DNA from: Nanobdellota archaeon
GTDB lineage: Archaea > Nanobdellota > Nanobdellia > Woesearchaeales > GCA-2686295
DNA: 64,000 nt
Direction: 5' to 3'
Assembly: GCA_018819065.1 (NCBI GenBank)
Contig: JAHJQL010000017.1
Span: 35,952 to 99,951, forward strand
The first letter of the stretch is position 1, and each line of letters begins with the position of its first letter. The position numbers and the translations under genes were made by a program. Shown in pieces: positions 44,251 to 64,000 of the stretch. Below the pieces are notes generated by a model that was not told where the DNA came from, did no database searches, and worked only from the letters and a program-made list of their open reading frames with translations.

Positions 44251-44583
44251 TTGATGCAAATAATACAAATAATAGGAATACTATTCGCACTATTTGCGTA
44301 TAGCAGGACTATCCTAAGATTTAAAGACAAGAGAATTACAGCAAAAGAGTTCTTGTTCTGGACAATAGTGTGGGTGGGTGTGATAATTGTTGCAATAATT
44401 CCTGGAGTTATGAGTGGGCTGTCAAGATTTTTAGGAATAGGAAGACCAATCGATATAATCGTCTACGCAAGCATAATAATCTTGTTTTACTTGATATTTC
44501 GAATTTATGTTAAAATCGAAGATGTTGAGCAAAACATCACAAAGATAGTTAGAGAAACTGCAATTAGAAGAAAGAAAAAATGA
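44251..44583 (+). CDS. DUF2304-like small membrane protein
   Basis: 110 aa, 3 TM helices plus a basic tail, a family usually adjacent to glycosyltransferases. Its stop overlaps the GT4 start. Confidence 0.5.
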   Translation: MMQIIQIIGILFALFAYSRTILRFKDKRITAKEFLFWTIVWVGVIIVAIIPGVMSGLSRFLGIGRPIDIIVYASIIILFYLIFRIYVKIEDVEQNITKIVRETAIRRKKK

Positions 44584-45713
44584 ACATTTTATTTCTAACG
44601 GAATACTTTCCACAATCAGACAAAGGAGAAATATCTGGTGGAGTTGAAGCAAGATGTTTTTATCTTGCAAAAGAATTAAGTAAAAATCATAAAATCATAG
44701 TAGTAACTTCTTGGAGAAAAAGACAAAAAAGAGTTAACAAAATAGGAACAATCATTGTTGAAAGAGTTGGACCAAATCACAAATACTCAAATAAAGGAAG
44801 TATTTTCTCAAGATTATTGTTTGCAATTTATGCTTATAAAAGAGCAAAAATAAAAAAAGCAGACGTTGTTGATGGATTTAATTTCACAACTTATATTCCT
44901 GCCTATTTTGCAGCAAAAAAGATTAATGCCAAAAAGATAGCAACTTATCATGAAACTTGGGTTGGAGAATGGATAAAAAATAAAGGATTAATCACAGGAT
45001 TAATTGGTGAATTACTTGAAAGAATTACTTTAAAACTAAAATGGGATTTAATAATTGCAGTTTCTAATTTTACAAAAGAAAAACTAGAACAAACGAGCCC
45101 AGAATTAAACAAAAGAGTAGTCTACAACGGCGTTATGATGAATGACTTTGAAAAGATAAAAACTACAAAAGACGAAGGATTTAGGATTGTGTGCGTATCA
45201 AGGCTGATAAAAACCAAAAGACAAGAGACAATACTAAAAGCGCTAAAAGAACTAAAAGACGAAGAAATAACAGCAGTATTTGTTGGTGATGGAGATGATA
45301 AAGAATACTTTAAGAAAAGAATTAAAGAATTCAAATTAGAGAAACAAGTCAGATTCACAGGATTTCTAAAAACCAAAGAAGAAGTCATAAAAGAAATAAA
45401 AAAGTCACATGTATTAGTGCATCCATCTGCAGTCGAAGGATTTGGAATAACAGTAATAGAAGGAATGGCAGCAGGAGTTCCAGTGATATGCTCAGATATT
45501 GAACCATTAAAAGAAGTCACTAATAATGGACTATGCGGATTAATATTCAAACTAGATGATTACAAAGAACTAGCAGAAAAAATAAAAACATTAAAAAACG
45601 ACAAAGAAAAATATGAAGAGATGAAAGAAAAAGGGTTAAAAAGAGCGAAAGAATTTGAATGGAAAACAATAGCGAAGGAGTATGAAAAAGCAATAATAAA
45701 AAAGAGTTCATAA
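44580..45713 (+). CDS. GT4 (GT-B) glycosyltransferase
   Basis: The C-terminal EGFGITVIEGMAAGVPVICSD motif is the GT4 signature. Confidence 0.8.
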   Translation: MNILFLTEYFPQSDKGEISGGVEARCFYLAKELSKNHKIIVVTSWRKRQKRVNKIGTIIVERVGPNHKYSNKGSIFSRLLFAIYAYKRAKIKKADVVDGFNFTTYIPAYFAAKKINAKKIATYHETWVGEWIKNKGLITGLIGELLERITLKLKWDLIIAVSNFTKEKLEQTSPELNKRVVYNGVMMNDFEKIKTTKDEGFRIVCVSRLIKTKRQETILKALKELKDEEITAVFVGDGDDKEYFKKRIKEFKLEKQVRFTGFLKTKEEVIKEIKKSHVLVHPSAVEGFGITVIEGMAAGVPVICSDIEPLKEVTNNGLCGLIFKLDDYKELAEKIKTLKNDKEKYEEMKEKGLKRAKEFEWKTIAKEYEKAIIKKSS

Positions 45714-46273
45714 TGAAAGAAGAGATAAAAAAACAATTTGATGAACACATAACTGCTGTTAAGGACAATTTTGATTTGGCTGAAAAAGTTGAGAACGCTT
45801 CAAGGTTGATTATAGATGCACTTAAAAACGAGAAAAAGATTCTTATCTGCGGCAACGGCGGAAGCGCAGCAGATGCCCAGCACATAGCTGCAGAGTTAAT
45901 GGGTAAGTATGAAAAGATGAGACCAGCACTTGCTGCAGTGGCGCTGACAACAGATACAAACATGCTCACTGCTTGGAGCAACGATGACTGTTATGAAAAC
46001 GTGTTTTCAAGACAAGTCGAAGGACTTGGCGCTAAAGGAGATGTTTTAATTGGAATAAGCACATCTGGAAACTCGGAGAATATCATAAGAGCAATGACTG
46101 CTGCTAAGAAAAAAGGATTAAAAACAATCTCTTTCATTGGAAAAGACGGGGGAAATATGAAAGGACTTGCAGATGTTGAGATACACATAAAACATGACCG
46201 GACGTCAAGGGTGCAGGAGGTTCAAGAATTATGTTATCATATAATGTGCGGAGCTGTGGAGAACGCTTTTTAG
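45713..46273 (+). CDS. gmhA: sedoheptulose-7-phosphate isomerase (SIS domain)
   Basis: ILICGNGGSAADAQHIAAEL, GISTSGNSENI. 186 aa. Confidence 0.85.
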   Translation: MKEEIKKQFDEHITAVKDNFDLAEKVENASRLIIDALKNEKKILICGNGGSAADAQHIAAELMGKYEKMRPALAAVALTTDTNMLTAWSNDDCYENVFSRQVEGLGAKGDVLIGISTSGNSENIIRAMTAAKKKGLKTISFIGKDGGNMKGLADVEIHIKHDRTSRVQEVQELCYHIMCGAVENAF

Positions 46274-46310
46274 TTAACTATTTATATTCTTTTTAATTCT
46301 TAAAAAAAAG

Positions 46311-47756
46311 ATGAAAGAGAAACTCAAAAGGATAATTGGAGATTTTTCTAAGAAAAAGATTCTAATCATTGGAGACATAATGATTGACAAGTATATATAT
46401 GGTGAGGTTACTAGAATAAGCCCAGAGGCACCAGTGCAAATTGTAAAAGTAAAAAGAGAGGTTTACACGCTTGGTGGTGCTGGAAACGTAGCAAACAACA
46501 TCAGAAGCTTAGATGCAAAATCAGTTGTTGTAAGTGTAGTTGGAGAAGATAAAGAAGGCGAACTGCTAAGAAAATTGTTGAAGAACAAAGATATAAGTTT
46601 TGAACTTATTAAAACCAAGAAGCCAACCACAATAAAAACTAGGGTGATTGGACAACAACAACAACTTTTAAGGATAGACTATGAAAATATACAAGACGTT
46701 AACAGCGAACAATTATTAAAAGCAATCAAAAAAGAAATGAAGAATTGTAACGGCGTAATAATATCCGACTACGCGAAAGGAGTAGTCACAAAAGAACTTG
46801 TAAAAACGGTTGTTTTGCTAGCAGGAAAAAAGCCCGTTGTGATTGATCCAAAACACAAGGAGCTTGATTATTACAAGAACGCAACCATCATCACTCCAAA
46901 CGAGAAAGAAGCGTATGAATTAAGCAATTTAGATCTAAAAATAGATTTAAAAGAAGTAATAACTCATCTTGAAAACAAGCTAAACTGCAAAGTAATAGTT
47001 ACAAGAGGCGAAAAAGGGATTAGTTTTTTAAAAGAAGGAAAACAAATAGATGTACCAACAATAGCAAGAGAAGTCTACGACGTATCAGGCGCCGGCGACA
47101 CAGTGATAAGTGCATTGACGCTGGCTGTTTGCTCAGGAGCAGATTTAGAAGAAGCAGCGCTAATAGCAAACCAGGCAGCAGGGATAGTTGTTGGAAAGTT
47201 TGGAACTGCAACAACCACAAGAAAAGAATTATTGTTCGGGTTTGAGAAGATGAACGCAAAGATAAAAACAAGAGAAGAAATCATCCAGATAAGAAAAGAA
47301 CTAAAGAAAAAAGGTAAAAAAGTGGTGTTTACAAACGGCTGCTTTGACATACTACACATCGGACACGTAAGGCTACTTCAAAAAGCAAAGGAGTATGGCG
47401 ACGTATTAATACTAGGATTAAACACTGACGCATCGGTAAGAAGGCTAAAAGGACCAAGCAGACCAGTGAATAACCAAGAGGACAGGGCAGAAGTCATATC
47501 AGGACTAGAAAGTGTTGATTATATAGTATTCTTTGGCGAAGACACACCTGTAGAGATAATTAAGAAGCTAAAACCAGACGTGCATGTAAAAGGAGGAGAT
47601 TACAACCCACATGATTACAAACAAATGCCAGAAGCAAAGACAGTACATGAATATGGAGGAGTTGTAGAGATAATAAAACTAACAGATGGAAAGTCAACGA
47701 CAAACATAATTAATAAGATGAATTTTCTCCACAACGAAAAGAGTAGTTCACACTAA
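46311..47756 (+). CDS. hldE: bifunctional D-glycero-beta-D-manno-heptose-7-phosphate kinase / heptose-1-phosphate adenylyltransferase
   Basis: pfkB kinase domain (LGGAGNVANN, DVSGAGDTVISAL) plus a cytidylyltransferase domain (VVFTNGCFDILHIGHVRLL). The present C-terminus KMNFLHNEKSSSH appears non-native; see the remnant at 49429..49512. Confidence 0.85.
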   Translation: MKEKLKRIIGDFSKKKILIIGDIMIDKYIYGEVTRISPEAPVQIVKVKREVYTLGGAGNVANNIRSLDAKSVVVSVVGEDKEGELLRKLLKNKDISFELIKTKKPTTIKTRVIGQQQQLLRIDYENIQDVNSEQLLKAIKKEMKNCNGVIISDYAKGVVTKELVKTVVLLAGKKPVVIDPKHKELDYYKNATIITPNEKEAYELSNLDLKIDLKEVITHLENKLNCKVIVTRGEKGISFLKEGKQIDVPTIAREVYDVSGAGDTVISALTLAVCSGADLEEAALIANQAAGIVVGKFGTATTTRKELLFGFEKMNAKIKTREEIIQIRKELKKKGKKVVFTNGCFDILHIGHVRLLQKAKEYGDVLILGLNTDASVRRLKGPSRPVNNQEDRAEVISGLESVDYIVFFGEDTPVEIIKKLKPDVHVKGGDYNPHDYKQMPEAKTVHEYGGVVEIIKLTDGKSTTNIINKMNFLHNEKSSSH

Positions 47757-47762
47757 TATAAA

Positions 47763-49103
47763 ATGAAATATAGTGAATCTGAAACATTAGAACTGAAAAA
47801 ATCCACTTCAGAAATAAATGAAGCCATAATTTCAATAGTTGCAATTTTAAATAAGCACAATGCAGGAGAATTAATTTTTGGAATATCTCCAAACGGAACT
47901 GTAAACGGACAAAGTTTTTCTGAAAAGACATTAAGAGATATTTCTCAAAAGATAGCAAATTCTATTGAACCAAAAATATATCCTCGAGTAGAGCCTCAAA
48001 AAATTGGTGAAAAATATTGTATAATTGTAAAATTTGTAGGAGATGAACCAATTTACTATGCTCAAGGCAAAGCATATGTGAGAGTTGCTGATGAGGATAA
48101 ACTCATGTCTGCAAAAGAAATAGAAAAAAGAATACAATCAAAAAGTAATCTTAAATGGGATTCTTTTGTTTCAGATGTTTCTTTTGAAAAAGTCAATGAA
48201 ACTCAATTAAAAAAGTATATTGAAGAAGCAAGAAAAACCGAACGAATTAATTTTTCTTATTCTAATAAAAAAGAAGTTCTTGAAAAACTTGAGTTAATTA
48301 AGGGAAATAATCTATTAAATGCAGGTAAAATATTATTTTATGATGCAACAGAAGTTCAGACCGCGGTTTTTGCAGGAACATCAAAAAATACTTTTTTAGA
48401 TATTAAAGATAAGACTGCAAATATTTTTGAATTGATAGAATTTTCTGAAAAATACATTAAAGAACATATTGATTGGAGGGCAGATTTAAGCACAGGGACT
48501 CGGCAAGAGATACCTGAAATTCCTATAAGAGCAATATCTGAAAGCCTGGTTAATTCTTTTTGCCACAGGGATTATACTGCTCCTGAAAGCAATAAAGTTG
48601 CGATTTATAAAGACAGAATTGAAATTTGGAATCCTGGAGAGTTCCCATCTGAATTTAAACCATTAGATTTTGTGAAAAAAGAATTGCCATCAGTTCTTAG
48701 AAATCCAAAAATCGCAAAAATATTATACTATAATAGAAAAATTGAAAAATGGGGTTCTGGACTTCGTCGTATTTATGATGAGTGTAAAGAACACGATGTC
48801 AAAGTCAAATTTAAAGTCTTAAAATATGGATTTAGTGTTATATTTTTTCGAAGCAAACCAAAAGTAACAAAGCAAGAATCGGACACAAACCAGACACAAA
48901 CCAGACACAAACCAGATGAAGAAAATAGACAGAAATGGATTTTAGACTACCTAAAAACTAATCAAACTATAAAATCTAAAGATATAATTCAAAAATTTAA
49001 AATTGTCAAAGATACATCTGTTCGAGACCTTAATAACCTTATTAAACAAAATAAAATCATTAAGAAAGGTGCAGGAAACAATGTGTGGTATGAGTTAAGA
49101 TGA
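47763..49103 (+). CDS. Schlafen/AlbA_2-domain protein with HATPase_c_4-like and C-terminal HTH (COG2865-like)
   Basis: N-terminal ESETLELKKS...AILNKHNAGELIFGISPNGTVNG (AlbA_2) and a mid region ...YKDRIEIWNPGEF. A short DNA tandem repeat acaaaccagac x3 lies at 48888-48922. Confidence 0.75.
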   Translation: MKYSESETLELKKSTSEINEAIISIVAILNKHNAGELIFGISPNGTVNGQSFSEKTLRDISQKIANSIEPKIYPRVEPQKIGEKYCIIVKFVGDEPIYYAQGKAYVRVADEDKLMSAKEIEKRIQSKSNLKWDSFVSDVSFEKVNETQLKKYIEEARKTERINFSYSNKKEVLEKLELIKGNNLLNAGKILFYDATEVQTAVFAGTSKNTFLDIKDKTANIFELIEFSEKYIKEHIDWRADLSTGTRQEIPEIPIRAISESLVNSFCHRDYTAPESNKVAIYKDRIEIWNPGEFPSEFKPLDFVKKELPSVLRNPKIAKILYYNRKIEKWGSGLRRIYDECKEHDVKVKFKVLKYGFSVIFFRSKPKVTKQESDTNQTQTRHKPDEENRQKWILDYLKTNQTIKSKDIIQKFKIVKDTSVRDLNNLIKQNKIIKKGAGNNVWYELR

Positions 49104-49387
49104 AAAAGAACTACAGGCATTATGATCAAGAAAAATTTCTAGAAGCCCTTGAAAACATAGATAAGAAAAAAACTAATAAAATACTAGATTTAGGTTCTGG
49201 CAAGGGAGATTTCACACATGAAATACAGTCAGTATTCAAAGGTTCTAGGATAACTGCAACAAAGATATATAAATGGCTTTACAAGAAACGACTTAAAATA
49301 TTTACTAGAACAGCACAAATTTACAATAGAAAAAGGTCTTGTTACAAAGGTTTTTTTATCAGAAAACAAACACATACCGCTGCTTGA
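49100..49387 (+). pseudogene. truncated class-I SAM methyltransferase fragment
   Basis: Only motif I (ILDLGSGKGDFT) is present and the ORF is 95 aa. It overlaps the Schlafen-like gene stop by 4 nt. Confidence 0.4.
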
Positions 49388-49428
49388 AAAAATAATACCC
49401 AAAATAGCACTATCACAAATATAGATTT

Positions 49429-49512
49429 ATGAAAGAAAATGATGGAGAAGTAAGACTTGTAAAACTAATAGAAGGAAAATCAACGACAAACATAATTAAT
49501 AAAATAAAATGA
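49429..49512 (+). pseudogene. remnant of the original 3' end of hldE
   Basis: Encodes MKENDGEVRLVKLIEGKSTTNIINKIK*, aligning to the hldE C-terminal GGVVEIIKLTDGKSTTNIINK. 23 nt (tcaacgacaaacataattaataa) are identical to 47699-47721. Its TGA overlaps the hldD ATG. Confidence 0.6.
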
Positions 49513-50456
49513 TAATCGTTACAGGTGGAGCAGGATTTATCGGTAGTTGTATTGTAAAAGGCTTAAATGACTTAGGAATTTCTAATATAATTATTGTTGA
49601 TGAACTAGGCACCGACGAGAAGTGGAAAAACCTCGTTAATCTAAAGTATAAAGACTTTATCCATAAAAACAATTTCTTAGAAGAATTAAAACTGATGAAA
49701 AACATCGACTTAATAATTCATATGGGCGCATGCTCATCAACAACAGAAACAGATTCAGATTATTTGATAGATAATAACTTCAAGTATAGCAAAGAATTGT
49801 TTGACTGGTGTTTAAAGAATAACTGCAGATTGATATACGCAAGCAGTGCAGCGACGTACGGCGACGGAAGCATTGGTTATGATGATTCAAAAACAGACGA
49901 GTTAAAGCCTCTGAATATGTATGGATATACAAAAAAATTATTTGACCAATACGTTTTAAACTCAGAAAACAAACCAAAGCAATGCGTCGGACTAAGATTC
50001 TTCAACGTCTACGGCCCAAACGAATATCATAAAGGAAAAATGGCTTCGGTAATATTTCACTCGTTTAACCAGATAAAAAAAGAAAAAGAGATAAAACTAT
50101 TCAAATCATACAAGAAAGAATACTCTGACGGAGAGCAAAAAAGAGACTTTGTATACGTAAAAGACACAGTAGAAGTAGTTCTGTTCATGATGAAGAATGA
50201 TAAAATTAACGGTATATTCAACGTTGGAACAGGAGAAGCAAGAAGCTTTAATGACTTGGCAAGAAGCGTGTTTAAAGCAATGAACCTAAAAGAAAATATA
50301 AAATATGTGGATATGCCGCAAGGACTAAAAGAAAAATACCAATACTACACACAAGCAAACATTGAAAAACTAAGAAAAGCAGGCTACAAAAAGAAGTTTT
50401 ACAGCCTAGAAGAAGGAACAAAAGACTATGTGTGTAAATATTTAGAAAAAATGTGA
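49509..50456 (+). CDS. hldD: ADP-L-glycero-D-manno-heptose 6-epimerase
   Basis: MIIVTGGAGFIGSCIVKGLNDLGISNIIIVDEL... matches the RfaD/HldD N-terminus closely. 315 aa SDR. Confidence 0.9.
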   Translation: MIIVTGGAGFIGSCIVKGLNDLGISNIIIVDELGTDEKWKNLVNLKYKDFIHKNNFLEELKLMKNIDLIIHMGACSSTTETDSDYLIDNNFKYSKELFDWCLKNNCRLIYASSAATYGDGSIGYDDSKTDELKPLNMYGYTKKLFDQYVLNSENKPKQCVGLRFFNVYGPNEYHKGKMASVIFHSFNQIKKEKEIKLFKSYKKEYSDGEQKRDFVYVKDTVEVVLFMMKNDKINGIFNVGTGEARSFNDLARSVFKAMNLKENIKYVDMPQGLKEKYQYYTQANIEKLRKAGYKKKFYSLEEGTKDYVCKYLEKM

Positions 50457-50488
50457 ATTATTAGAATAAATTTCAAGTTCATAAAATA

Positions 50489-51487
50489 ATGAAAATAAAC
50501 ATAATAAATAGTTCTCCAAAAAATAGCGCAATATGGAAAGTAGGATATTATAATTATCTTGAATTAAAAAAAGACACTCATTATGATGTTAAATTTATAG
50601 ATTTATGGGAAGAAAACAAAGTATCTCATAACAATATAATTAGAGCATTACAACTTCTAAAAGGAATAAATCTAAATTTAAAGAAAGACGAAATAAATTA
50701 TTACATGACCCCCCTAATGTCAAAAACAATGAGGATAAATAAAGCAAAACAAAACATCATGTTTATACATGATTTGTATCCGTTGTATTATTCAGGAATA
50801 GGACTTAAAACAGTATGCAAAATACTCTATAAACAATCGACATTTGCAAATCTAATAGTTACTAACTCCGATACAACAAAGAATGAATATTTACAAGAAT
50901 ATGGTAAAACAAATAAAATATTTTCAAACCATCTTGGATTAGATAAAAAATATTTTAAAGTAAAAACTGTAAAAAAACCTAAGAAATTAACTTTCATAAG
51001 CATAGGAAGAGATGAACCAAGAAAAAATCTTGAATTTATAATTAATATTCTTAACAAAATTAATGTAGAATTTGAACTAATAAGAATAGGTGAATTTAGC
51101 AAGAAAAACATATCTAAGTTGAATAAAATAAAAAATAAAATACGAATATACAAAAATGTCAATGAAAATGAATTAATAAAACTGTATTCAAAATCACACA
51201 TTTTACTATTTCCATCGACTTATGAAGGATTTGGAATGCCACCAATAGAAGCAATGGCATGTGAATGCATACCATTAGTATCAGACAAAACAAGTTTGCC
51301 AGAAGTAGTTCAAAATGAAGAACTAATAATTCCTCTTGAAGAAGAAAAATGGATTGAAAAAATAAAACAAATAATTAAAGATGAAAGTTACAAAAAAGAA
51401 TTAATACAATTTGGAAAACAACAAATAAATAAATATATTTGGAAAGAACATAAAGAAAGATTTGAAAAAATATTGAATTATTTATAA
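50489..51487 (+). CDS. GT4/GT1-type glycosyltransferase
   Basis: C-terminal LLFPSTYEGFGMPPIEAMACECIPLVSD. Confidence 0.7.
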   Translation: MKINIINSSPKNSAIWKVGYYNYLELKKDTHYDVKFIDLWEENKVSHNNIIRALQLLKGINLNLKKDEINYYMTPLMSKTMRINKAKQNIMFIHDLYPLYYSGIGLKTVCKILYKQSTFANLIVTNSDTTKNEYLQEYGKTNKIFSNHLGLDKKYFKVKTVKKPKKLTFISIGRDEPRKNLEFIINILNKINVEFELIRIGEFSKKNISKLNKIKNKIRIYKNVNENELIKLYSKSHILLFPSTYEGFGMPPIEAMACECIPLVSDKTSLPEVVQNEELIIPLEEEKWIEKIKQIIKDESYKKELIQFGKQQINKYIWKEHKERFEKILNYL

Positions 51488-51510
51488 AAATAAATTTCAG
51501 ATGTGCTAAA

Positions 51511-52467
51511 ATGTATATAACTCAAAAAAAATATTGGTCTTTTCTTTTCACAATCGACATTATTGGAAACATATTATTTTTTTGGACAAAACTAAAAAAA
51601 CCTCCTAAAAGAATAAATAAAATCCTATTTATAAGACTTGAACATATAGGAGATATGGTACTTGCAACACCCATATTTGAAAGTTTCAAAAAAGAACATC
51701 CTGAATGTAAAATTCACGTGTTATGTAAAACCTTAAGTGAACCAATAATTAAATATAATCCTTATGTTAATAAAATAATTACATATGACCCTTCATGGAT
51801 GATACAAAGACAAGAAGATCCAAAAAAAACTTTTTATTCGTTAATATCTACTCTTCGAAAAGAAAAATATGATTTAGTATTTGAAATGCATGGAGACCCA
51901 AGAAATAATTTAATAACATTTTTAACTGGAAGTTATACAATAGGATATTCTTGTAGAGGTGGAGGATTTTTCTTAAATAAAATAATTCAATATAATCCTA
52001 AGAAAAGAATGATTGAACAAAATCTAGATTTAATAACTAATTACTGTAAAAAAACTACTGACAAAACAAGAATATTTGTTGATAATAATTCAAAAAAAGA
52101 AGCAACCAAGTTAATGAAAAAGTATAATCTTAAAAGTAAACAATATATAATTATCAATCCTTTATCTGGCAGAAAAGAAAAAGATTTGACAACAGAAGAA
52201 GTTAATAAATTTATTAAAGAATATTCTGATCAAAAAATAGTAATCACAGGATCAAAATCAGAAATTGAAAAAAATAAAGTATATAATAAATATACAAATA
52301 TAATAAATGTGACAGGTAAAACTAATCTTTTAGTATTAACAGAAATTGTGCAAAACGCAAAAAAAGTAATAGCACCAGATACAGGAATAATACACATTGC
52401 AAAAGCTGTCAAAACACCATTTGAAGCAGTATATAAGACAACTGATAAAAGTGTGTGGGGGTACTAG
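51511..52467 (+). CDS. GT9 glycosyltransferase (ADP-heptose heptosyltransferase family)
   Basis: ILFIRLEHIGDMVLATPIFESFKKEHPECKIHVLC (N-terminal GT9 signature), ...IINPLSGRKEKDLT..., KVIAPDTGIIHIAKAV. Confidence 0.75.
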   Translation: MYITQKKYWSFLFTIDIIGNILFFWTKLKKPPKRINKILFIRLEHIGDMVLATPIFESFKKEHPECKIHVLCKTLSEPIIKYNPYVNKIITYDPSWMIQRQEDPKKTFYSLISTLRKEKYDLVFEMHGDPRNNLITFLTGSYTIGYSCRGGGFFLNKIIQYNPKKRMIEQNLDLITNYCKKTTDKTRIFVDNNSKKEATKLMKKYNLKSKQYIIINPLSGRKEKDLTTEEVNKFIKEYSDQKIVITGSKSEIEKNKVYNKYTNIINVTGKTNLLVLTEIVQNAKKVIAPDTGIIHIAKAVKTPFEAVYKTTDKSVWGY

Positions 52468-54970: not shown

Positions 54971-54972
54971 AA

Positions 54973-56127: not shown

Positions 56128-56758
56128 AGAATATGCTTTAAACCATCAAAAAAATGCTAAAGAGTATTGGGAGTATAAAGAAATATTTAGATTATTCACA
56201 CCTAAAAAAAATTCTTCAATATTAGAAATTGGCTGTAATACAGGTGACTTAATAAAACTTCTTTACGAAAGAGGCTACAAAAATATTTCAGGAATTGATA
56301 TAAACTCTCAAGCTGTTAAAATCGCAAAAAAAAAAGTTCCTAAAGCAAACATACAAATTAAAGATATCATGAAAACAATCCCAGAAAAAAAATACGATAT
56401 AATTTATGCATTACATATTATTGAACACTTTGAAAATACTGAAGATTTTCTTAAAAAAATTAAAAATTTACTTAATAATAAAGGAATACTTATAATTTCA
56501 TGTCCTAATAAAATAGCCTATTTAATGAGATTAGAACATTTTATCAGAGGAAAAAAGCACTGTTTTGATCCGACACATGAAAAATATTTCTCAATATTAG
56601 AATTACAAAAAGAATGTAGAAAAATAGGTTTTAAAATTATGAGAAAAAGCACTTTACCTCTTGATTTAATAACACAAAAAATCCTCGAAGGAAAAAATAT
56701 TAGAATTCCTGCAACGATATTTGGAGGTCATAATTATATAGTGTGTCAAAATGATTAA
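56084..56758 (+). CDS. class-I SAM methyltransferase
   Basis: ILEIGCNTGDL motif I and DIIYALHIIEHF motif II. It overlaps the upstream GT9 3' end by 44 nt. Confidence 0.7.
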   Translation: MLRMLKKKFMKYYNKEYALNHQKNAKEYWEYKEIFRLFTPKKNSSILEIGCNTGDLIKLLYERGYKNISGIDINSQAVKIAKKKVPKANIQIKDIMKTIPEKKYDIIYALHIIEHFENTEDFLKKIKNLLNNKGILIISCPNKIAYLMRLEHFIRGKKHCFDPTHEKYFSILELQKECRKIGFKIMRKSTLPLDLITQKILEGKNIRIPATIFGGHNYIVCQND

Positions 56759-58268
56759 AAAATTAATATTATTTTATCCATCGAGCGAATCTGATTTTGA
56801 AGGTAAAGATATAGATTTTGAAATACCAGGAATACCTATTGGAATAATGAGTTTAGCAGCATATATAGAGTCAAAAGGATACGAAGTAAAACTAATAGAT
56901 TCGAGATTATATGATAAGAATACTAGTAAAAACATGTTGTTTAATGAAATAAATGAAGAAACAATTGTAGGAATTTCAGCCACCACATCTCAAGTAAAAC
57001 ATGGATATATAATTTCTAAAGAAATAAAAAACAAATTTTCAAAAACAAAAATTGTTTGGGGCGGAATACACCCAACACTTTATCCAGAACAAACAATAAA
57101 AGGAAAATATGTTGATTTTGTGATAAATGGTGAAGGTGAATATGGATTACTGGAACTAATAAAACAACTTAACCTGACAACACCCGATTTTTCAAAGGTT
57201 CCTAGTCTAATTTATTTAAAAAGAAGTAAAATCATACAAAATCAATTAACTTTCTGTTCTGACATAAATGAGTTACCAGATCCGTCATATCATCTTCTAG
57301 AAATTGAAAAATATACAAATCGTGAACTTTATTTTTATGATATGAATAAAAAATACAAAACCATTGACATAAACACCAGCAGAGGTTGCCCATATAGATG
57401 CTCATTTTGTACAAATACCATTAATGGTTTTAAAAATTGGAGACCATTAGATGCAAAAAGAGTTAATAAACTAATCGATAAGTTGATCACAAAATATAAA
57501 GTAGAACACATATGGTTTATGGATGATTATTTTTTTGGAAATAAAGAAAGAGTAAAAGAAATTATTAACCACTTAATTAAAAAAAAATATAATCTCACCT
57601 GGGAGGCAAATGCAAGAGCTAATTTATTTAGAAATAATTATTTTACAAAAGAATTTATAAAATTAATAAAAAAAAGTGGTTGTATACAGTTAAGAATGGG
57701 TATAGAATCAGGTTCGAATAGAGTTTTAAAAATATTAAAAAAAGATATATTTATTGATGATGCAATAACTGCTACCAAAAAATTAAAAAAATATAAAATA
57801 AGAAGTAACATGTATTTTATGGGAGGAATTCCTGGAGAAACAAAAGAAGAGTTCATACAAACAATAAAACTAATGATTAATTTAAAAAAAATAGATTCTA
57901 ACTCGCTTATTCAAGGGCCTGGATTATTCAGACCATATCCGGGAACAGAATTATATAAAGAATGCAAAAAATTAGGATTTGAAGAACCAAAAACGCTTGA
58001 AGAATGGACTAAAATTAATTTGACAAATAATTTCGGAATAAATGAAAAAGACATTCAATGGGTTGATTTTGCACCTGAAGTAATAACGTCTGAAATAACT
58101 GTATTTAATTTTATGTATGGACACAGCAATAAGTCAAGAAATAAAAAACTTAGCATTACTAGAATAATATTATATTATATTGCACTATTAAGATTAAAAA
58201 CTAATTTTTTTAAAATACCAATGGAAAAAAAATTATTAGAGATAAAACAAAGAATGACAAAAAAGTAA
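56751..58268 (+). CDS. cobalamin-binding radical SAM enzyme, second copy
   Basis: B12-binding-like N-terminus (IVGISATTSQ...IVWGGIHPTLYPEQ) and TSRGCPYRCSFC. Confidence 0.8.
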   Translation: MIKKLILFYPSSESDFEGKDIDFEIPGIPIGIMSLAAYIESKGYEVKLIDSRLYDKNTSKNMLFNEINEETIVGISATTSQVKHGYIISKEIKNKFSKTKIVWGGIHPTLYPEQTIKGKYVDFVINGEGEYGLLELIKQLNLTTPDFSKVPSLIYLKRSKIIQNQLTFCSDINELPDPSYHLLEIEKYTNRELYFYDMNKKYKTIDINTSRGCPYRCSFCTNTINGFKNWRPLDAKRVNKLIDKLITKYKVEHIWFMDDYFFGNKERVKEIINHLIKKKYNLTWEANARANLFRNNYFTKEFIKLIKKSGCIQLRMGIESGSNRVLKILKKDIFIDDAITATKKLKKYKIRSNMYFMGGIPGETKEEFIQTIKLMINLKKIDSNSLIQGPGLFRPYPGTELYKECKKLGFEEPKTLEEWTKINLTNNFGINEKDIQWVDFAPEVITSEITVFNFMYGHSNKSRNKKLSITRIILYYIALLRLKTNFFKIPMEKKLLEIKQRMTKK

Positions 58269-58272
58269 AAAC

Positions 58273-59157
58273 ATGAAAACTATTATAAATTTATTAAAAT
58301 GTCCTGTTTGTAATTCAAACATTTCAGAAAATTTAAAGTGTGAACAATGTTCATACACAATCTCCAAAAAAAAAAATGTTTTTTTGTATAAACAGTTTCT
58401 AGACAAACAAATGTTGCGAGAAGACAACTTAAATAAAGAAATAATAAAAAATTCAAAAAAATTTAGAAAAGAAATAATTAATAAAAAAGGAATATTTTCA
58501 GTAAAAAAGATTATTAAAAGAATAAAAAAAGATAAAAAAATAAATAAAAACTCTGTAGTTCTTGAACTTGGCGGTGCAAATGGATGGTTATCAGAAATAG
58601 TATCTAAAGAAACTTCTAACGTATATAATACAGATATCTCATTTTGTTTTTTAAAGTATGGAAAAATTCCTTCTTTTCTTATCCCTATGAACAAAATTGA
58701 TAAAATATTCAAAAAAGAAAGTTTTGACATAGTCTGGGTTAATGCTGCATTGCATCATTGCGAAAATCTTGATGAAGTTTTTAAAGCTGTTAAGTATGTT
58801 CTTAAGAAAAAAGGGATATTCATAATCAGCAATGAACTAATTGTCGGAAAAATTATAAAAAATCCGGATGTAAAAAAAGCAAACGAAGCTGGAGCGCAGG
58901 ATTACCCTTATCAATTATCACATTATGTAAACACCTCAAAAAAATACTTGAAAACTTCAATTTTTTTGCCAGATGATTTGGATTATTTTATAAAAAATCC
59001 GCAAGTTATTCAAACAGGGTACAAAAGAATTATTTTTAGACTAATTAAAAAAGTTGGTTTTTTCAGATTAAAGGATACATTTTTATTTAAAAAAATATAT
59101 CTTGCTTTCGGAGAACTATTTGGTGCACCAGTATTAATAATATGCGAGAATGACTAA
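58273..59157 (+). CDS. class-I SAM methyltransferase with N-terminal zinc ribbon
   Basis: CPVCNSN...CEQCSY, then VLELGGANGW. Confidence 0.65.
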   Translation: MKTIINLLKCPVCNSNISENLKCEQCSYTISKKKNVFLYKQFLDKQMLREDNLNKEIIKNSKKFRKEIINKKGIFSVKKIIKRIKKDKKINKNSVVLELGGANGWLSEIVSKETSNVYNTDISFCFLKYGKIPSFLIPMNKIDKIFKKESFDIVWVNAALHHCENLDEVFKAVKYVLKKKGIFIISNELIVGKIIKNPDVKKANEAGAQDYPYQLSHYVNTSKKYLKTSIFLPDDLDYFIKNPQVIQTGYKRIIFRLIKKVGFFRLKDTFLFKKIYLAFGELFGAPVLIICEND

Positions 59158-59904
59158 ATGAAAAAAATTAAATTGTCAGGATTTATTGTAGTAAGGAATG
59201 AAGAAAAAAATATTGAAAGATGCTTAAGATCTCTTGATTTTTGTGATGAAATAATAGTTGTAGATCAGGAAAGCACTGACAAAACAGTTAAGATAGCGAG
59301 AAAATATACGAAAAACATTTATCATGACAAATGCTGGGGATATGCTGACCCTAGCAGAAAACTAGGAGCTAGCAAATGTAAAGGACGATGGATTCTAAAC
59401 TTGGATGCTGATGAAGAAATCACAAATCCCTTAAAATTAGAAATATTAGATGCGATAAAAAAAAACACTGCAGATGCATATTATATTCATAGAGAGATAT
59501 ATTTTTTGGAGAAAAAAATAGTGTGTGTAAGTGAAACTGATTATGTTCTCAGACTTCATAAAAAAAATACTGTAACTTATGTTTCAAATATTCATGTATG
59601 TGTAATTCCAAAAAAAAATATTATTATCAAAAAACTTAAAGAATCTATGAATCATTATGCAACAACATCTATAAAACAAGCACTAGAAAAAATTAGAAGA
59701 TACGCGAAAATTCAAGCTAAAACAGACAAAAAATATAATTCTTTTCCTCGAAAGTATTTTGGAATATTTTATACTCCCATCTATTATTTTGTCTACATCT
59801 ATTTCATCAAAAAAGGATTTTTGAATGGACAAAATGGTTTTATATATGCATGTATGGATTTCTATTATCAAATATTGATATATAGATATTTATGGTTCAA
59901 ATAA
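59158..59904 (+). CDS. GT2 glycosyltransferase
   Basis: GFIVVRNEEKNIERCLRSLDFCDEIIVVDQESTDKT. Confidence 0.7.
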   Translation: MKKIKLSGFIVVRNEEKNIERCLRSLDFCDEIIVVDQESTDKTVKIARKYTKNIYHDKCWGYADPSRKLGASKCKGRWILNLDADEEITNPLKLEILDAIKKNTADAYYIHREIYFLEKKIVCVSETDYVLRLHKKNTVTYVSNIHVCVIPKKNIIIKKLKESMNHYATTSIKQALEKIRRYAKIQAKTDKKYNSFPRKYFGIFYTPIYYFVYIYFIKKGFLNGQNGFIYACMDFYYQILIYRYLWFK

Positions 59905-59913
59905 AAAAATAGA

Positions 59914-60615
59914 TTAAATCTTTCTCGCTTTTACAATATATAATAAAGAGAACCTATTTGGAATCTTATATGCTAAAAACTTTCTAAAAGACTTAGGCAT
60001 AAATGTCAAAATATATGCTATTAGATTAATAAATTTTGAAGATAAACATTTTGCCCGAGTTATATTTTTCACATCTCTCTGCCATGTATTAAATGCGGGA
60101 ACATGTTCAACCCACTCAACATTAAAACCTGTCTTGTTTAAATCATCAATCAAATTTTTAATATAAATTCGCCTTACATGATGTACCCCATCTGCGGGAT
60201 TGTTAGGCTGACCTATAAACAACACCCCGCCATCTTTAAGTACATTGTTTACCTCCGTTAGTGTCTTACTTGGATGATTCAAGTGTTCGAGAACCTCAAA
60301 ACAATACACAACATCATAACTATCCTCTTTTATAGGAAATCTTTTATGAATATCTGTTTTAATTGTTTTATAACCTAATTTTCTAGAAAATTTTAATCCA
60401 GAATCAGAAATATCCATGATAGTAACATTTCTTATGCCGAGATAATACATGAAATGTCCATTGCCACCGCCAATGTCTAACAACGATTTTTTTCCTTTTA
60501 CAACAAGCTTCTTTTTGAAATCATGATATAATCTCTCATAATATTTTATCTCTTTTCGCTTCTCAAACTCTTTATCCCAATAAGTTTTATAGTATAATCC
60601 ATAATTTTCTTGCAT
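59914..60615 (-). CDS. class-I SAM methyltransferase
   Basis: LLDIGGGNGHFMYYL and DVVYCFEVLEHL motifs. Confidence 0.7.
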   Translation of the reverse strand: MQENYGLYYKTYWDKEFEKRKEIKYYERLYHDFKKKLVVKGKKSLLDIGGGNGHFMYYLGIRNVTIMDISDSGLKFSRKLGYKTIKTDIHKRFPIKEDSYDVVYCFEVLEHLNHPSKTLTEVNNVLKDGGVLFIGQPNNPADGVHHVRRIYIKNLIDDLNKTGFNVEWVEHVPAFNTWQRDVKNITRAKCLSSKFINLIAYILTFMPKSFRKFLAYKIPNRFSLLYIVKARKI

Positions 60616-60860: not shown

Positions 60861-60897
60861 TATTTAAATTAAGCATTCTAATAATATTTAAATAAAC
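60846..60897 (+). repeat. 26-bp perfect tandem direct repeat (taagcattctaataatatttaaat x2)
   Basis: Directly visible at the boundary of the wzx remnant and the promoter region of the intact wzx. Confidence 0.8.
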
Positions 60898-60913
60898 AAT
60901 CAATAAACTATTA

Positions 60914-62404
60914 TTGATGAACAAGCTCACTAGAACAACAATTCAGCTTTTCATAATTAGTCTTTTTATTGGGCTAATCAATTATCTTTTAAGGATTGTA
61001 TTTGCCAGGAACTTAACTTTGGAGGAGTATGGTTTGTTCTATGCTGTTTTCGCACTTGTTTCCTTCTTTGCTCCTTTTAGGGATTTGGGTCTTGGCGAGT
61101 CTACCTTGTTTTTCATTAATAAATATGTTGTCAAGTCTGACAAGAAGAGAATCAAAGCATCTATAGTTATTGGTATTCTTCCTCAGCTCATTCTTGGAAT
61201 AGTCATTGCAGCAATTCTCTTCTTGCTTAAGGGTTACTTGGTTAAAAACTATTTCAAGAATCCCTTAGCAGACCCAATAATGACTATTTTAATCATCCTT
61301 TTTGCTTTTGAGACTATAAGGCCTACTTTGATATATCTCTTCTTAGCTTATCAAAAAGTTGCTTTAAGCAAGTTAAACGACTTGATTTGTTCTCTATCTA
61401 TATTAATAGTTTCAATAATACTATTTTCTTTTTCATCATCATCAAAAACAACAGTTCCAGCAATAGCTTACTTAATAGGATCAGTTGTAGCAATAGTCAT
61501 ATTTGGAATCATTTTTTACACTCAATTTAAAGATGTCATCAAAGAGAAAGCAGCCATAAACAAAGCGTTAATAAAAGAGATGTTTAATTATGCTATTCCA
61601 ATTATGTTTTCCACGGCTGGAGCTATGATTTTAGTCTACAGCGACACATTATTATTAACTTATTTTAAGGGTGTGGAGTTAGTTGGATTATATAACATCG
61701 CGTACCCTGCTTTAGGAGTTATATTAATTTTTATAACGCCAATAAGCATAATTCTTTTCCCAAAGATATCTAACCTTTACCATCAAAAGAAGTCTCAAGA
61801 CATAAAAAACATTTTAAGCATAATATACAACAATTTCTTGCTCTTAACAATTCCTTTGGGACTTGCATTCTTTGTTTACTCTGATTTAATTATTTCTTTG
61901 CTCTTTGGAGTAAAATACATAGGTGCAACTAACACGTTAAAGGTTTTCTCATTAGCATTCATATTCATAGGTATAAGAGATATCAACTTTAACATAATCG
62001 CAGGTATTGGAAAAGTCAAGGAGCGCTCAAAGATACTCTACTATGGCGCAGGATTCAACGTAATACTAGACTTAATCTTAATTCCAAAATACGGTGCAAG
62101 TGGAGCTGCAATTGCAACAGGCCTCGGATTTGCATTAATGGCTTACCTAACAACAAAACTAATCTTAAAAGAATACCCAATCCACATCGAAAAGTTCATC
62201 CAGTTAAAAACAGTATTCTCAGGACTATTATTCCTTGCTTCATTAAGTCTGCTTAAAAAAATAATTGTTATGAGCAACGCAATAATAGAAGCAATAATTG
62301 TCTGCACAATTTCAGGAATAATTTATGTACTCGCACTATACTTATTAAAAGTTGTAACTAAAGAGAAAATACTGTTTTTAAAAGAATTAGTTTTGAAAGA
62401 ATGA
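60914..62404 (+). CDS. wzx: polysaccharide/oligosaccharide flippase (Wzx, MOP/MATE-like superfamily)
   Basis: 496 aa with ~12-14 predicted TM helices, a typical Wzx topology, in a glycan gene cluster. Confidence 0.75.
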   Translation: MMNKLTRTTIQLFIISLFIGLINYLLRIVFARNLTLEEYGLFYAVFALVSFFAPFRDLGLGESTLFFINKYVVKSDKKRIKASIVIGILPQLILGIVIAAILFLLKGYLVKNYFKNPLADPIMTILIILFAFETIRPTLIYLFLAYQKVALSKLNDLICSLSILIVSIILFSFSSSSKTTVPAIAYLIGSVVAIVIFGIIFYTQFKDVIKEKAAINKALIKEMFNYAIPIMFSTAGAMILVYSDTLLLTYFKGVELVGLYNIAYPALGVILIFITPISIILFPKISNLYHQKKSQDIKNILSIIYNNFLLLTIPLGLAFFVYSDLIISLLFGVKYIGATNTLKVFSLAFIFIGIRDINFNIIAGIGKVKERSKILYYGAGFNVILDLILIPKYGASGAAIATGLGFALMAYLTTKLILKEYPIHIEKFIQLKTVFSGLLFLASLSLLKKIIVMSNAIIEAIIVCTISGIIYVLALYLLKVVTKEKILFLKELVLKE

Positions 62405-62547
62405 TCAATTTTTCTTCCACTCAATCATCTTTTTTATCATATCTTTAATTGACATTGTTATCTTCCAGTTTGGATAGTTTTTTTATCTGTCCCTCTTCAT
62501 TGTGTGCTGGTATTAACACGCTTAATTTCATTTTAAGAAATCCTTTT

Positions 62548-63621
62548 TTAGCTTAATATTGGCTTGAGACTCTTCTCGTTTTTTCGTATCCATTCAACAA
62601 CATCTTTTACAATCTCGTCAATTGTAATCTTTGGCTTCCAACCACACTCTCTTTTAATCTTTGTCGTGTCTGTCAAGTAGATTGGAACATCCTGTGTTCT
62701 ATCTTCTTTCACACTTCCAATCTTTATCTTGTTGCCTGTGTATTTCTCGCAGAGCTTAGTTAATTCTAAAAGTGAAACACTAAATTCTCTTCCACCACCA
62801 ACATTATAGGTTTTTCCAGAGAACTGCTCTATATTTTCAAGTTGTAATTTTAGTAGTCTATAAAGATCTTGTATGTGAATAATATCTCTTACTTGTTTTC
62901 CTTCTCCGCCATAACCGATGTAATTCAATTCTCCTTTAAAGTAGTGCTTTGCAGCCCATAAGACAATTAATCCTTGATCGACTTTCCCCATCTGCCAAGG
63001 GCCAGCTATTACTCCGCACCTGTCAATGACTGCTCGCATATCATAAGCATCGATGTACTCGTTTATTAGTATTTCAGAAGCTAATTTTGTCGCTCCGTAG
63101 AACGAACTTGCTCCTTCAATTGGAAAATCTTCAGATATGCCTTTAGAGGACGCACCTCTAACAGGTTGGTTTTCTGCAAGTTCAAAACGAGTCTCTTTTT
63201 CCACAAGCTTTAATGAGTTTATCAGTTTTGTAGGATAAACTCTGCTTGTTGACAAAAAAAGAAAATCTGCTTTGTTCTTCCTTGCAACCTCCAAACAATT
63301 AATCGTTCCAAAAAAATTTGTATTGATAACGTATTCAGGAGACTCATCACTATAACCTGCGAGGACGGATGGCTCTGCAGAGCAGTCAATAACACAATCA
63401 ACATCTCTTATGCCCGTCAAATCTTCCTTATTTCTAATGTCTCCATGAAAAAATTCTATATTGTTGTCTTTTAATCTTGGAATTGCGAGTTCTGATCCTC
63501 TGCGCTTGAGACTGTCAACGCAGACAATTTTTATCTTAGGAAAATCTTTTTTTAGAAATATCGCCAGGTTTGAGCCGACAAATCCTGCGCCTCCAAAAAC
63601 AACTATTTTTTCATATCTCAT
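62548..63621 (-). CDS. NAD-dependent sugar-nucleotide epimerase/dehydratase (SDR, GalE-like)
   Basis: VVFGGAGFVGSNLAIFL Rossmann motif and a YGATKLASE catalytic YxxxK. Confidence 0.8.
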   Translation of the reverse strand: MRYEKIVVFGGAGFVGSNLAIFLKKDFPKIKIVCVDSLKRRGSELAIPRLKDNNIEFFHGDIRNKEDLTGIRDVDCVIDCSAEPSVLAGYSDESPEYVINTNFFGTINCLEVARKNKADFLFLSTSRVYPTKLINSLKLVEKETRFELAENQPVRGASSKGISEDFPIEGASSFYGATKLASEILINEYIDAYDMRAVIDRCGVIAGPWQMGKVDQGLIVLWAAKHYFKGELNYIGYGGEGKQVRDIIHIQDLYRLLKLQLENIEQFSGKTYNVGGGREFSVSLLELTKLCEKYTGNKIKIGSVKEDRTQDVPIYLTDTTKIKRECGWKPKITIDEIVKDVVEWIRKNEKSLKPILS

Positions 63622-63683
63622 GAATAAGCGAGATAAATCTTATTTGATTTATATGTTTTCTTTTTTTCAGATGAAAAATAACA

Positions 63684-64000
63684 TCAATTTCCATTATGAT
63701 TTCTAATTGATGGAAGAAGTTTAAACCATTCAATAGTTTGTCTTAAGCCCTCATCTAATTCAACTTCAGGTTTCCATCCAAGCATCTTTCTAGCTGATGA
63801 AATGTCTGGTTGCCTCTTTGTTGGATCATCCTGAGGGAGTTTCTCAAATATAAGAGGAGAACTTGAATTAGTAAGTTGCTTTACTTTTTGCGCTAGCTCA
63901 AGTATTGTAAACTCATCAGGGTTTCCTAAATTTTTTGGCTGAACAAAATTGGAGTTCATCATCATGATTAATCCTGAAACCATATCACTGATATAGCAAA
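63684..64000 (-). CDS. UDP-glucuronate decarboxylase (UDP-xylose synthase)-like SDR, partial (N-terminus beyond window end)
   Basis: The frame is open to the window edge. ...YISDMVSGLIMMMNSNFVQPKNLGNPDEFTILELAQ...DDPTKRQPDISSARKMLGWKPEVELDEGL closely parallels the UXS C-terminal region. Confidence 0.75.
   Translation of the reverse strand, partial: CYISDMVSGLIMMMNSNFVQPKNLGNPDEFTILELAQKVKQLTNSSSPLIFEKLPQDDPTKRQPDISSARKMLGWKPEVELDEGLRQTIEWFKLLPSIRNHNGN

Follow-up and report, generated by a model that had tools for sequence, protein, structure and literature searches.

What does a genome-reduced DPANN archaeon do with ADP-heptose, and into which molecule does the sugar go? The question is raised by a stretch of 64,000 nucleotides (nt), hereafter the window, from a Nanobdellota archaeon of the Woesearchaeales (assembly GCA_018819065.1, contig JAHJQL010000017.1, positions 35,952 to 99,951 of the forward strand). 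It contains a gene island in which the ADP-heptose biosynthesis genes gmhA, hldE, and hldD stand together with genes for two family 9 glycosyltransferases (GT9a and GT9b), two cobalamin-binding radical S-adenosylmethionine enzymes (rSAM1 and rSAM2), four methyltransferases (MT1 to MT4), and a Wzx-type flippase. An initial annotation of this DNA predicted a lipid-linked, flipped glycan containing methylated heptose. With its supply genes, GT9s, methyltransferases, and flippase of the MOP superfamily, the island is still best read in that way, although C-methylation, transfer by the oligosaccharyltransferase AglB, and the activity of GT9a are inferred. More fully, the island would specify a heavily tailored oligosaccharide that contains heptose, depends on Wzx, and is probably linked to AglB; we hold this best explanation with moderate confidence. 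The new point is the recurrent pairing of GT9a-type genes with a B12-radical-SAM family in DPANN and Omnitrophica loci.

The island is about 25 kb long and extends beyond 44251-64000 on both sides, to the left with a divergent O-carbamoyltransferase gene and to the right, past the window end, with UXS, UDP-glucose dehydrogenase, and an IS481-like transposase. Its core is an operon-like block of 16 plus-strand open reading frames (ORFs) at 44251-59904, with gaps of -44 to +37 nt except for one of 121 nt before hldD. (Positions are those of the window, and genes are on the plus strand unless marked minus.) The first ORF encodes a small DUF2304 membrane protein (44251-44583; PF10066, 98.8 bits). 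Gene calls were judged by NCBIfam equivalog cutoffs and Pfam gathering scores, and matches to solved structures were taken from the PDB. In these hidden Markov model (HMM) scans, every gene listed by the initial annotation for 44251-64000 was recovered in its place, either above curated thresholds or backed by PDB matches.

The three heptose supply genes are intact at the equivalog level and are not pseudogenes. GmhA, the sedoheptulose-7-phosphate isomerase (45713-46273), scores 211.2 against a cutoff of 209.45 for TIGR00441. HldE, the bifunctional heptose-7-phosphate kinase and heptose-1-phosphate adenylyltransferase (46311-47756), passes the models for both of its domains (TIGR02198, 352.5 versus 345; TIGR02199, 200.9 versus 181.5) and stays below the cutoff of the full-length model NF008454 (478.7 versus 521). 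HldD, the ADP-glyceromanno-heptose 6-epimerase (49509-50456), is well above its cutoff (TIGR02197, 432 versus 274.6). Together, GmhA would convert sedoheptulose-7-phosphate to D,D-heptose-7-phosphate and HldE would phosphorylate this to the 1,7-bisphosphate. Some phosphatase standing in for GmhB would then yield the 1-phosphate, from which HldE would make ADP-D,D-heptose and HldD, finally, ADP-L,D-heptose. Why ADP rather than another nucleotide? Arg in the (F/L)xxGxSTT motif of HldE has been associated, as summarized in the literature, with CTP/UTP promiscuity. The C-terminal motif of the island HldE is LTDGKSTT, with Lys rather than Arg at position 5, and ADP-heptose is therefore its expected product.

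Is the pathway a recent loan from bacteria? The initial annotation regarded ADP-heptose as essentially bacterial, a premise that has to be given up: functional heptose biosynthetic enzymes of the GmhA and HldE types, which make ADP-heptose, are known from archaea (Tang et al. 2024, as summarized in PMC11461863 and PMC11573728). The question of bacterial origin was addressed by ranking named HldE and GT9b matches by identity, most database matches carrying no taxon. All named HldE matches at 50 to 63% identity are metagenome-assembled genomes (MAGs) of Nanoarchaeota, Woesearchaeota, or an unclassified "archaeon," while named bacterial matches (Aliarcobacter) begin at 46 to 48%; among GTDB species representatives, relatives reach only 31 to 38% (Chlorobiaceae, Engelhardtia, Methanosarcinales). 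Homologues of HldE and GT9 are frequent, and already annotated as such, in MAGs of Nanoarchaeota, Woesearchaeota, and Aenigmatarchaeota, and those of GT9b are annotated in Woesearchaeota, Nanoarchaeia, Aenigmatarchaeota, and Omnitrophica. By these identities, the heptose/GT9 theme appears to be established within DPANN archaea and not to be a recent one-off transfer.

Which enzymes would use the ADP-heptose? The island holds five glycosyltransferases, namely a pair each of GT9 and GT4 enzymes and a single GT2, all above Pfam thresholds; enzymes of these three families had been predicted. The GT4 enzymes are GT4a (44580-45713; PF00534, 145.7 bits) and GT4b (50489-51487; PF00534, 99.1 bits). The GT2 enzyme, of 248 amino acids (59158-59904; PF00535, 63.4 bits), has an orthologue in one of the related loci, L011 (291 bits). 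GT9a (51511-52467) and GT9b (54973-56127) score 85.7 and 127.5 bits, respectively, against a PF01075 gathering score of 22. Both carry N-terminal GD and D(S/T)G motifs (DTG in GT9a, DSG in GT9b), which line up in alignments with WaaF and the GT9 structure 3tov. GT9b is full-length, with an additional K motif and a C-terminal Cys-rich finger, and matches 3tov with 104 bits and WaaF (1psw) with 66 bits; overall, the PDB matches of the two proteins are WaaF, WaaC, and 3tov. Their use of ADP-heptose is suggested by linkage to gmhA, hldE, and hldD here and to heptose genes in loci L011, L099, L041, L059, and L062. The two GT9 genes each lie close to a radical-SAM gene and methyltransferase genes; a recent tandem duplication of such a GT9-rSAM-MT module was ruled out, the paralogues being just 23 to 33% identical.

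What might the radical-SAM enzymes do? The prediction of two cobalamin-binding members of this superfamily was borne out, as both rSAM1 (52455-54014) and rSAM2 (56751-58268) are above the gathering scores of PF02310 and PF04055 and both have the CxxxCxxC signature, CPYNCTYC at residue 220 of rSAM1 and CPYRCSFC at residue 213 of rSAM2. They are 30% identical to each other. An AlphaFold (AF2) model of rSAM1, built with 31 homologues, has a mean predicted local distance difference test (pLDDT) score of 91.4, and its top Foldseek matches, with probability 1.0, are MgmA, AprD4, TsrM, CysS, TokK, and OxsB at 15 to 19% identity. The model shows a predicted class-B (cobalamin-type) radical-SAM fold, to which rSAM1 adds, compared with solved members of the class, a helical region at the C terminus that is about 85 residues long and includes a hydrophobic stretch.

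The initial annotation placed the two enzymes in the class that C-methylates unactivated carbons and predicted O- and/or C-methylated heptose. The class does include C-methylases, and most of its characterized B12-binding members are methylases, among them GenK, GenD1, and MoeK5, which provide precedents for C-methylation of sugars (PMC9204698). The structural neighbors of rSAM1 mix chemistries, however. MgmA, TsrM, CysS, and TokK are no closer than AprD4, a diol dehydratase acting on an aminoglycoside sugar, or the ring-contracting OxsB; C-methylation is therefore one possible chemistry among several, and the one with the most frequent precedent. The best NCBIfam matches, HpnJ and BchE, are likewise non-methylases, though far below cutoff, and no equivalog cutoff is reached. 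It is thus possible, if the less probable outcome, that the two enzymes carry out deoxygenation (as AprD4 does), ring contraction or carbocycle formation (OxsB, HpnJ), or epimerization, in which case the glycan would be O- but not C-methylated. A locus in which a different kind of radical-SAM enzyme occupies the equivalent slot, L099, points the same way: there a SPASM radical-SAM protein of 323 amino acids, not of the B12-binding type, lies between two GT9 genes (L099 10001-13836). On balance, C-methylation appears the most likely radical-SAM chemistry, with deoxygenation or rearrangement possible. GenK, GenD1, MoeK5, and AprD4 share with rSAM1 and rSAM2 the N-terminal B12-binding domain and CxxxCxxC core, and these known enzymes act on glycosides; they belong to antibiotic pathways, whereas rSAM1 and rSAM2 are encoded in a surface-glycan cluster.

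Does the pairing of GT9 with rSAM1 recur elsewhere? Of the six distinct loci outside this organism that contain a close rSAM1 homologue (at least 43% identity), five carry a GT9 gene no more than 6 kb away, including L012, whose rSAM1 homologue is labeled Nanoarchaeota at NCBI, and L009, from an Omnitrophica bacterium; the exception is the Woesearchaeota locus L008. The adjoining GT9 genes are GT9a-type orthologues (113 to 167 bits), except that L100 has a GT9b-type gene instead. Of 49 distant rSAM1-family loci that came from a metagenome scan and are flanked by 5 kb or more of sequence, 10 carry a GT9 gene and 7 a heptose-pathway gene within the same 6 kb. The enrichment was judged against a rough estimate, that there are only a few GT9 genes per genome, rather than against matched controls. 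Gene content around the pair is informative as well. L100 keeps the cassette rSAM1-MT-MT-GT9b-MT-MT-rSAM2 of the window with intact ORFs at 58 to 72% amino acid identity, which implies selection. L011 combines a methyltransferase, a GT9a-type, an rSAM1-family, and a GT2 gene with a flippase, an HldD-like short-chain dehydrogenase/reductase (SDR), a separate heptose kinase, gmhA, and an HldC-GmhB fusion. In L041, L059, and L062, a GT9-rSAM pair stands beside HldA-like and HldC-like genes, and in L099 genes for GT2, a GT9b-type enzyme, a methyltransferase, the SPASM radical-SAM enzyme, GT9, and GT4 stand beside gmhA, gmhB, hldE, and hldD. We tentatively propose, as a minority view of these data, that GT9a-type and rSAM1-type genes form a conserved two-gene module across DPANN archaea and bacteria such as Omnitrophica, one that would install a radical-modified heptose (C-methylated or rearranged) in a cell-surface glycan.

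Two further features of these relatives were seen in passing. The L099 cluster has gmhA and hldE in two copies each. In L014/L015 (8229-12939), an rSAM1 homologue of 47% identity lies between a phosphoenolpyruvate mutase/nucleotidyltransferase fusion, in a Fom1-like layout, and a GT9a-type gene; some members of the rSAM1 family may therefore act in phosphonate-decorated glycans.

Besides the two radical-SAM enzymes, tailoring of the glycan would involve four SAM-dependent methyltransferases of the O/N type and one O-carbamoyltransferase, seven enzymes in all. The four class-I methyltransferases predicted at the outset pass Pfam thresholds: MT1, with an N-terminal Cys4 ribbon (54014-54970; PF13489, 58.7 bits), MT2 (56084-56758; PF13489, 81.9 bits), MT3 (58273-59157; PF08241, 44.7 bits), and MT4 (59914-60615, minus; PF08241, 62.9 bits). 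The full-length O-carbamoyltransferase, of the NodU/CmcH/TobZ family (41948-43708, minus, divergent from the island; PF02543, 274 bits; PF16861, 241 bits), matches the solved relatives 7xb6 and TobZ with 350 and 271 bits. Nucleotide sugars other than ADP-heptose are also provided for, and here too the earlier calls were correct. The SDR nucleotide-sugar epimerase (62548-63621, minus) has its nearest solved relatives among the CDP-tyvelose 2-epimerases (9rl0, 138.6 bits; 1orr, 129 bits). UXS, the UDP-glucuronate decarboxylase, is cut by the window end so that only its 3' part is seen (63684-64000, minus); the full gene on the source contig encodes 318 amino acids, with 381 bits to the human UDP-glucuronate decarboxylase. 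Past the window end lies UDP-glucose 6-dehydrogenase (UGDH; TIGR03026, 469 versus 190), and by their family assignments UGDH and UXS are a predicted supply line from UDP-glucuronate (UDP-GlcA) to UDP-xylose (UDP-Xyl).

How would the finished glycan leave the cytoplasm, and to what would it be attached? Export is the simpler matter. As predicted, there is a Wzx-type flippase, a Wzx/AglR-type member of the MOP superfamily with about 12 to 14 transmembrane (TM) segments (60914-62404; PF01943, 97.8 bits; also PF13440 and MurJ), and by hydropathy this and the DUF2304 protein are the only multi-TM proteins in the island. Pfam scans and hydropathy revealed no Wzy polymerase, Wzz chain-length regulator, ligase, or ABC exporter in the window or island; a MOP flippase in such company fits a short lipid-linked oligosaccharide. 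The destination is harder to name. AglB/STT3, of 953 amino acids with about 12 TM segments and the WWDYG motif at residue 605, is encoded at 37500-40361 (minus; PF02516, 149.9 bits), below the cutoff of the subfamily model TIGR04154 (70 versus 450). The flippase and all five glycosyltransferases are encoded within 25 kb of aglB, and archaeal agl genes typically cluster around aglB. The initial annotation noted that the heptose genes lie next to aglB. It is the distance of about 4 kb between aglB and the island, that is, proximity, that makes the link, and transfer of the island glycan by AglB is plausible on that ground.

The surroundings of aglB leave room for another assignment. On the same strand as aglB lie genes for a GT2 enzyme resembling polyprenyl-phosphate sugar synthases of the PpgS/AglJ type (36070-36795, minus), with sub-cutoff scores (199 bits to PpgS, cutoff 370; 95 bits to AglJ, cutoff 325), and for two EamA half-transporters of about 118 amino acids each, co-directional with aglB (36744-37097 and 37097-37453, minus). 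An AAA_14/DUF4143 ATPase gene, which matches the PADLOC candidate defense family PDC-S01 with 348 bits, lies between aglB and the island (40505-41791, minus). In passing, the combination of aglB, two EamA proteins, and a GT2 recalls three-component systems around a GT-C enzyme, such as ArnC/ArnE/ArnF/ArnT or GtrA/B/C. If AglB serves another glycan, the island product could be a non-protein glycoconjugate, for example a lipoglycan, a glycolipid resembling the lipopolysaccharide (LPS) core, or a capsule-like membrane-anchored oligosaccharide. Canonical GT9 acceptors are lipid-linked, and the most similar bacterial cluster, the Omnitrophica locus L009, has a Wzy_C/O-antigen-ligase-type gene and is therefore an LPS-type cluster. 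Against this stand the lack of a ligase, Wzy, Wzz, or ABC exporter in the window and of 3-deoxy-D-manno-octulosonic acid (Kdo) or lipid A genes at the locus, and also the presence of a MOP flippase beside aglB, which is the usual signature of archaeal agl loci, as with Haloferax AglR and AglB. We consider a non-protein glycoconjugate rather unlikely.

What, then, might AglB modify? On the far side of aglB, a secreted protein of 1781 amino acids with Big_9, cadherin-like, and PKD repeats and 18 N-x-S/T sequons is encoded within 22595-33439 (minus), flanked by CARDB/Ig-like membrane proteins and by a 509-amino-acid protein with 11 sequons. The large protein and its neighbors are candidate adhesins and candidate glycosylation targets.

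Put together, the preferred reading of an AglB-linked heptose oligosaccharide is as follows. A short oligosaccharide would be assembled on dolichyl or polyprenyl phosphate at the cytoplasmic face of the membrane by the GT4, GT9, and GT2 enzymes, with heptose added by GT9b and, if its truncation is tolerated, by GT9a. The sugars would then receive O-methyl and carbamoyl groups and be altered further by the two radical-SAM enzymes. The MOP flippase would flip the lipid-linked oligosaccharide, and AglB, encoded about 4 kb away, would most probably move the glycan to Asn residues of surface proteins.

Several observations weigh against this pathway, beginning with the supply of its substrate. As the initial annotation remarked, the window has no gmhB that could be found by tblastn (with an E. 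coli GmhB query), by a six-frame HAD motif scan, or by Pfam scans of ORFs. In relatives, a GmhB-type phosphatase is either encoded in the cluster (L099) or fused to the adenylyltransferase HldC (L011); in E. coli, a gmhB knockout is leaky. The glycosyltransferases raise two more doubts. Both GT9s miss the cutoffs for LPS heptosyltransferases I, II, and III (WaaC, WaaF, WaaQ), with 98 bits for GT9a and 116 for GT9b against 134.6 to 185.3, and the assignment of heptose as their donor therefore comes from gene context only. GT9a, moreover, ends with ...SVWGY about 35 to 60 residues short of its orthologues, covers positions 4 to 299 of the 353 in the family HMM, and lacks a C-terminal segment found in all five aligned relatives; judging from these alignments, only one GT9 may be active. 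A frameshift that would restore the missing C terminus was considered and ruled out, with only about 50 nt between the GT9a stop and the conserved start of rSAM1. Further along the pathway, the window contains no initiating phosphoglycosyltransferase, and no PF00953-type enzyme is among the scanned ORFs. The mixed chemistries around rSAM1 have been described, as has the ATPase gene that sets the small operon of aglB, GT2, and EamA genes off from the island, and AglB may be using a different glycan. Finally, there are signs that the locus has been rearranged, namely an inserted Schlafen-like gene, the remnant of a methyltransferase gene, and an insertion sequence (IS) element at its flank, all described below.

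Could the heptose genes simply belong to a bacterial contaminant or a chimeric contig? This was checked and is not so. The DPANN archaeal context seen by the initial annotation is upheld by AglB, by the replication factor C large subunit (NF003229, 353 versus a cutoff of 280), and by an archaeal-type YchF-related GTPase (556 versus 387), all in the same window. Glycyl-tRNA synthetase is encoded there too, as is a geranylgeranyl-reductase-family protein marginally below cutoff (TIGR02032, 156.2 versus 158.8). Proteins identical to rSAM1 and HldE are entered at NCBI under "Nanoarchaeota archaeon" MAGs, on a 141,740-bp contig. The junction from aglB to the heptose genes recurs at 99.9 to 100% identity in SRR6514730, SRR10598174, SRR7059195, GCA_018819945.1, ERZ27247117, and JGI 3300015370, and since it comes from several runs and assemblies, it is neither a misjoin nor the work of a bacterial contaminant. 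These assemblies represent one population and are therefore uninformative on conservation.

If the contig is sound, is the locus still in working order? There are signs of rearrangement. Between hldE and hldD lies a non-glycan gene, identified by Pfam scan, for a Schlafen AlbA_2/HATPase_c_4/HTH protein (47763-49103), which has weak PADLOC matches to pAgo-associated proteins; it is followed by a 95-amino-acid remnant of a class-I methyltransferase (49100-49387; sub-threshold matches to Methyltransf_23 and DREV). Downstream, rSAM1 has no ATG at the start conserved in its family, and its GTG or TTG start overlaps the GT9a stop. From the alignments, it looks as though a single small deletion had cost GT9a its tail and rSAM1 its start (51511-52560). 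The GC content falls from about 0.34 elsewhere to 0.23 to 0.27 across about 50 to 60 kb (49800-60000), and two independent assemblies, L002 and L003, both break inside hldD (about 49.8 to 50.0 kb), at the point of the GC drop, which suggests strain-level variation of the downstream block. A GC drop with assembly breaks of this kind is commonly seen at variable surface-glycan loci. The contig itself runs only about 3.1 kb past the window end, and at its very end, right after UGDH, is an IS481-like transposase (L096 69-932, about 2.2 to 3.0 kb past the window end) that probably caused the assembly break there. In another sample, L098 (JGI 3300015370), the locus is 99.9% identical, but three indels split GT2 and shorten MT3 (equivalent to 58273-59904), representing either real inactivation or assembly error.

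These features, with the absence of a gmhB such as the relatives have, could describe a horizontally acquired, variable locus that has partly decayed, so that the heptose glycan is no longer made in this strain. We regard this as improbable. Apart from GT9a and the methyltransferase remnant, all long ORFs are unbroken and closely spaced and do not differ between several samples, and functional surface-glycan loci are typically low in GC. Least probable by far is that the GT9s heptosylate proteins directly in the cytoplasm, like the TibC/Aah autotransporter heptosyltransferases: ADP-heptose-dependent protein O-heptosylation by GT9-like enzymes exists (PMC4358343), GT9b has its Cys-rich finger, and the 1781-amino-acid adhesin-like protein is encoded nearby, but a TibC/Aah-type (BAHT) identity was rejected for want of any TibC chain among the PDB matches, WaaF, WaaC, and 3tov (E of at most 0.001 for GT9b and 0.01 for GT9a), and a flippase and many glycosyltransferases in one block favor a lipid-linked oligosaccharide.

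How does the proposed AglB-linked pathway compare with those already known? In the Haloferax volcanii Agl pathway (AglJ/G/I/E, AglP, AglR, AglB), a glycan is assembled on dolichyl phosphate in the cytoplasm, its sugars are methylated in a SAM-dependent manner, and it is flipped by the MOP flippase AglR and transferred by AglB, with the genes grouped around aglB. The logic proposed for the island is the same, and methylated sugars, such as methylated GlcA in Haloferax, are known in archaeal N-glycans. The Haloferax equivalog cutoffs are not reached here (AglJ, 95 versus 325; AglM, 403 versus 670; Agl16, 103 versus 575), the Haloferax sugars are other than the heptose and xylose predicted for the island, and the radical-SAM and carbamoyl tailoring has no counterpart there. 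With the bacterial LPS heptose systems, the island shares equivalog-level GmhA, HldE domains, and HldD, as well as the GT9 domain with its GD and D(S/T)G motifs. It differs from them in its archaeal host, in having no Kdo or lipid A genes and no gmhB in the window, in being joined to a MOP flippase beside AglB, and in GT9s that fall below every WaaC/WaaF/WaaQ cutoff, those of the GT9a type having an N-terminal hydrophobic extension. The Omnitrophica LPS-type cluster (L009; GCA_028715335.1) has the same enzyme mix of GT4, methyltransferase, B12-radical-SAM, and GT9 genes, among them one of the GT9a type and an rSAM1 homologue that is 43% identical; unlike the island, it has a Wzy_C/ligase-type gene and no AglB, and it is likewise uncharacterized.

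Heptose itself is not new to archaeal glycans, and the statement in the initial annotation that a glycan of this kind is undescribed in archaea has to be narrowed. D-glycero-D-galacto-heptose occurs in the N-glycan of Thermoplasma acidophilum (PMC11407970, PMC12448462), a heptose-bearing archaeal glycan like the one proposed here; the isomer is different, and those reports give no genetic basis, no methyl- or carbamoyl-heptose, and no link to GT9. There are published archaeal heptose enzymes, and many DPANN MAGs encode HldE and GT9. To the enzymes of Tang et al. (2024), as summarized, the island adds a physical link to GT9 candidates, tailoring enzymes, and a flippase, and its HldE has Lys where the promiscuity-associated Arg would be. 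Nothing specific was found, within the searchable literature, on heptose or GT9 in DPANN archaea or Woesearchaeota or on B12-radical-SAM enzymes in surface polysaccharides, nor anything under the accession and run numbers of this DNA. Both the GT9-B12-radical-SAM module and the joint occurrence of heptose and xylose with four methyltransferases, two radical-SAM enzymes, and a carbamoyltransferase appear to be uncharacterized anywhere.

Elsewhere in the window, a few features unrelated to the glycan deserve mention. A FlaI/TadA-like secretion ATPase of 763 amino acids is followed by a 746-amino-acid protein with nine TM segments and no Pfam match (778-5299), which may be a type IV pilus or archaellum-like assembly pair. 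A WYL-domain protein adjoins a BRO-N-domain protein (7905-9325, minus), typically a sign of mobile or viral DNA. A search of the window for structured RNAs yielded tRNA-Phe only.

Overall, what would this locus mean for archaeal heptose? Commentaries on the archaeal enzymes state the purpose of heptose in archaea to be unknown (PMC11461863, PMC11573728). By tying the ADP-heptose pathway to GT9, a flippase, and AglB, this locus and its relatives offer a testable answer in the form of a genomic prediction, namely that heptose goes into a surface glycan. If the radical-SAM enzymes remodel that heptose, sugar tailoring by radical-SAM enzymes, known from antibiotic pathways, would reach into cell envelopes as well. 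Should the GT9a-rSAM1 module prove true, a cobalamin-dependent radical-SAM step would for the first time be assigned to the making of a prokaryotic surface glycan; the module would also give a reason for ADP-heptose in archaea and make the surface coat of a genome-reduced DPANN archaeon dependent on scavenged cobalamin. The surface coat of DPANN archaea is their interface with hosts and viruses, and a variable, low-GC, bacterial-looking glycan locus bears on both host attachment and gene exchange between the domains.

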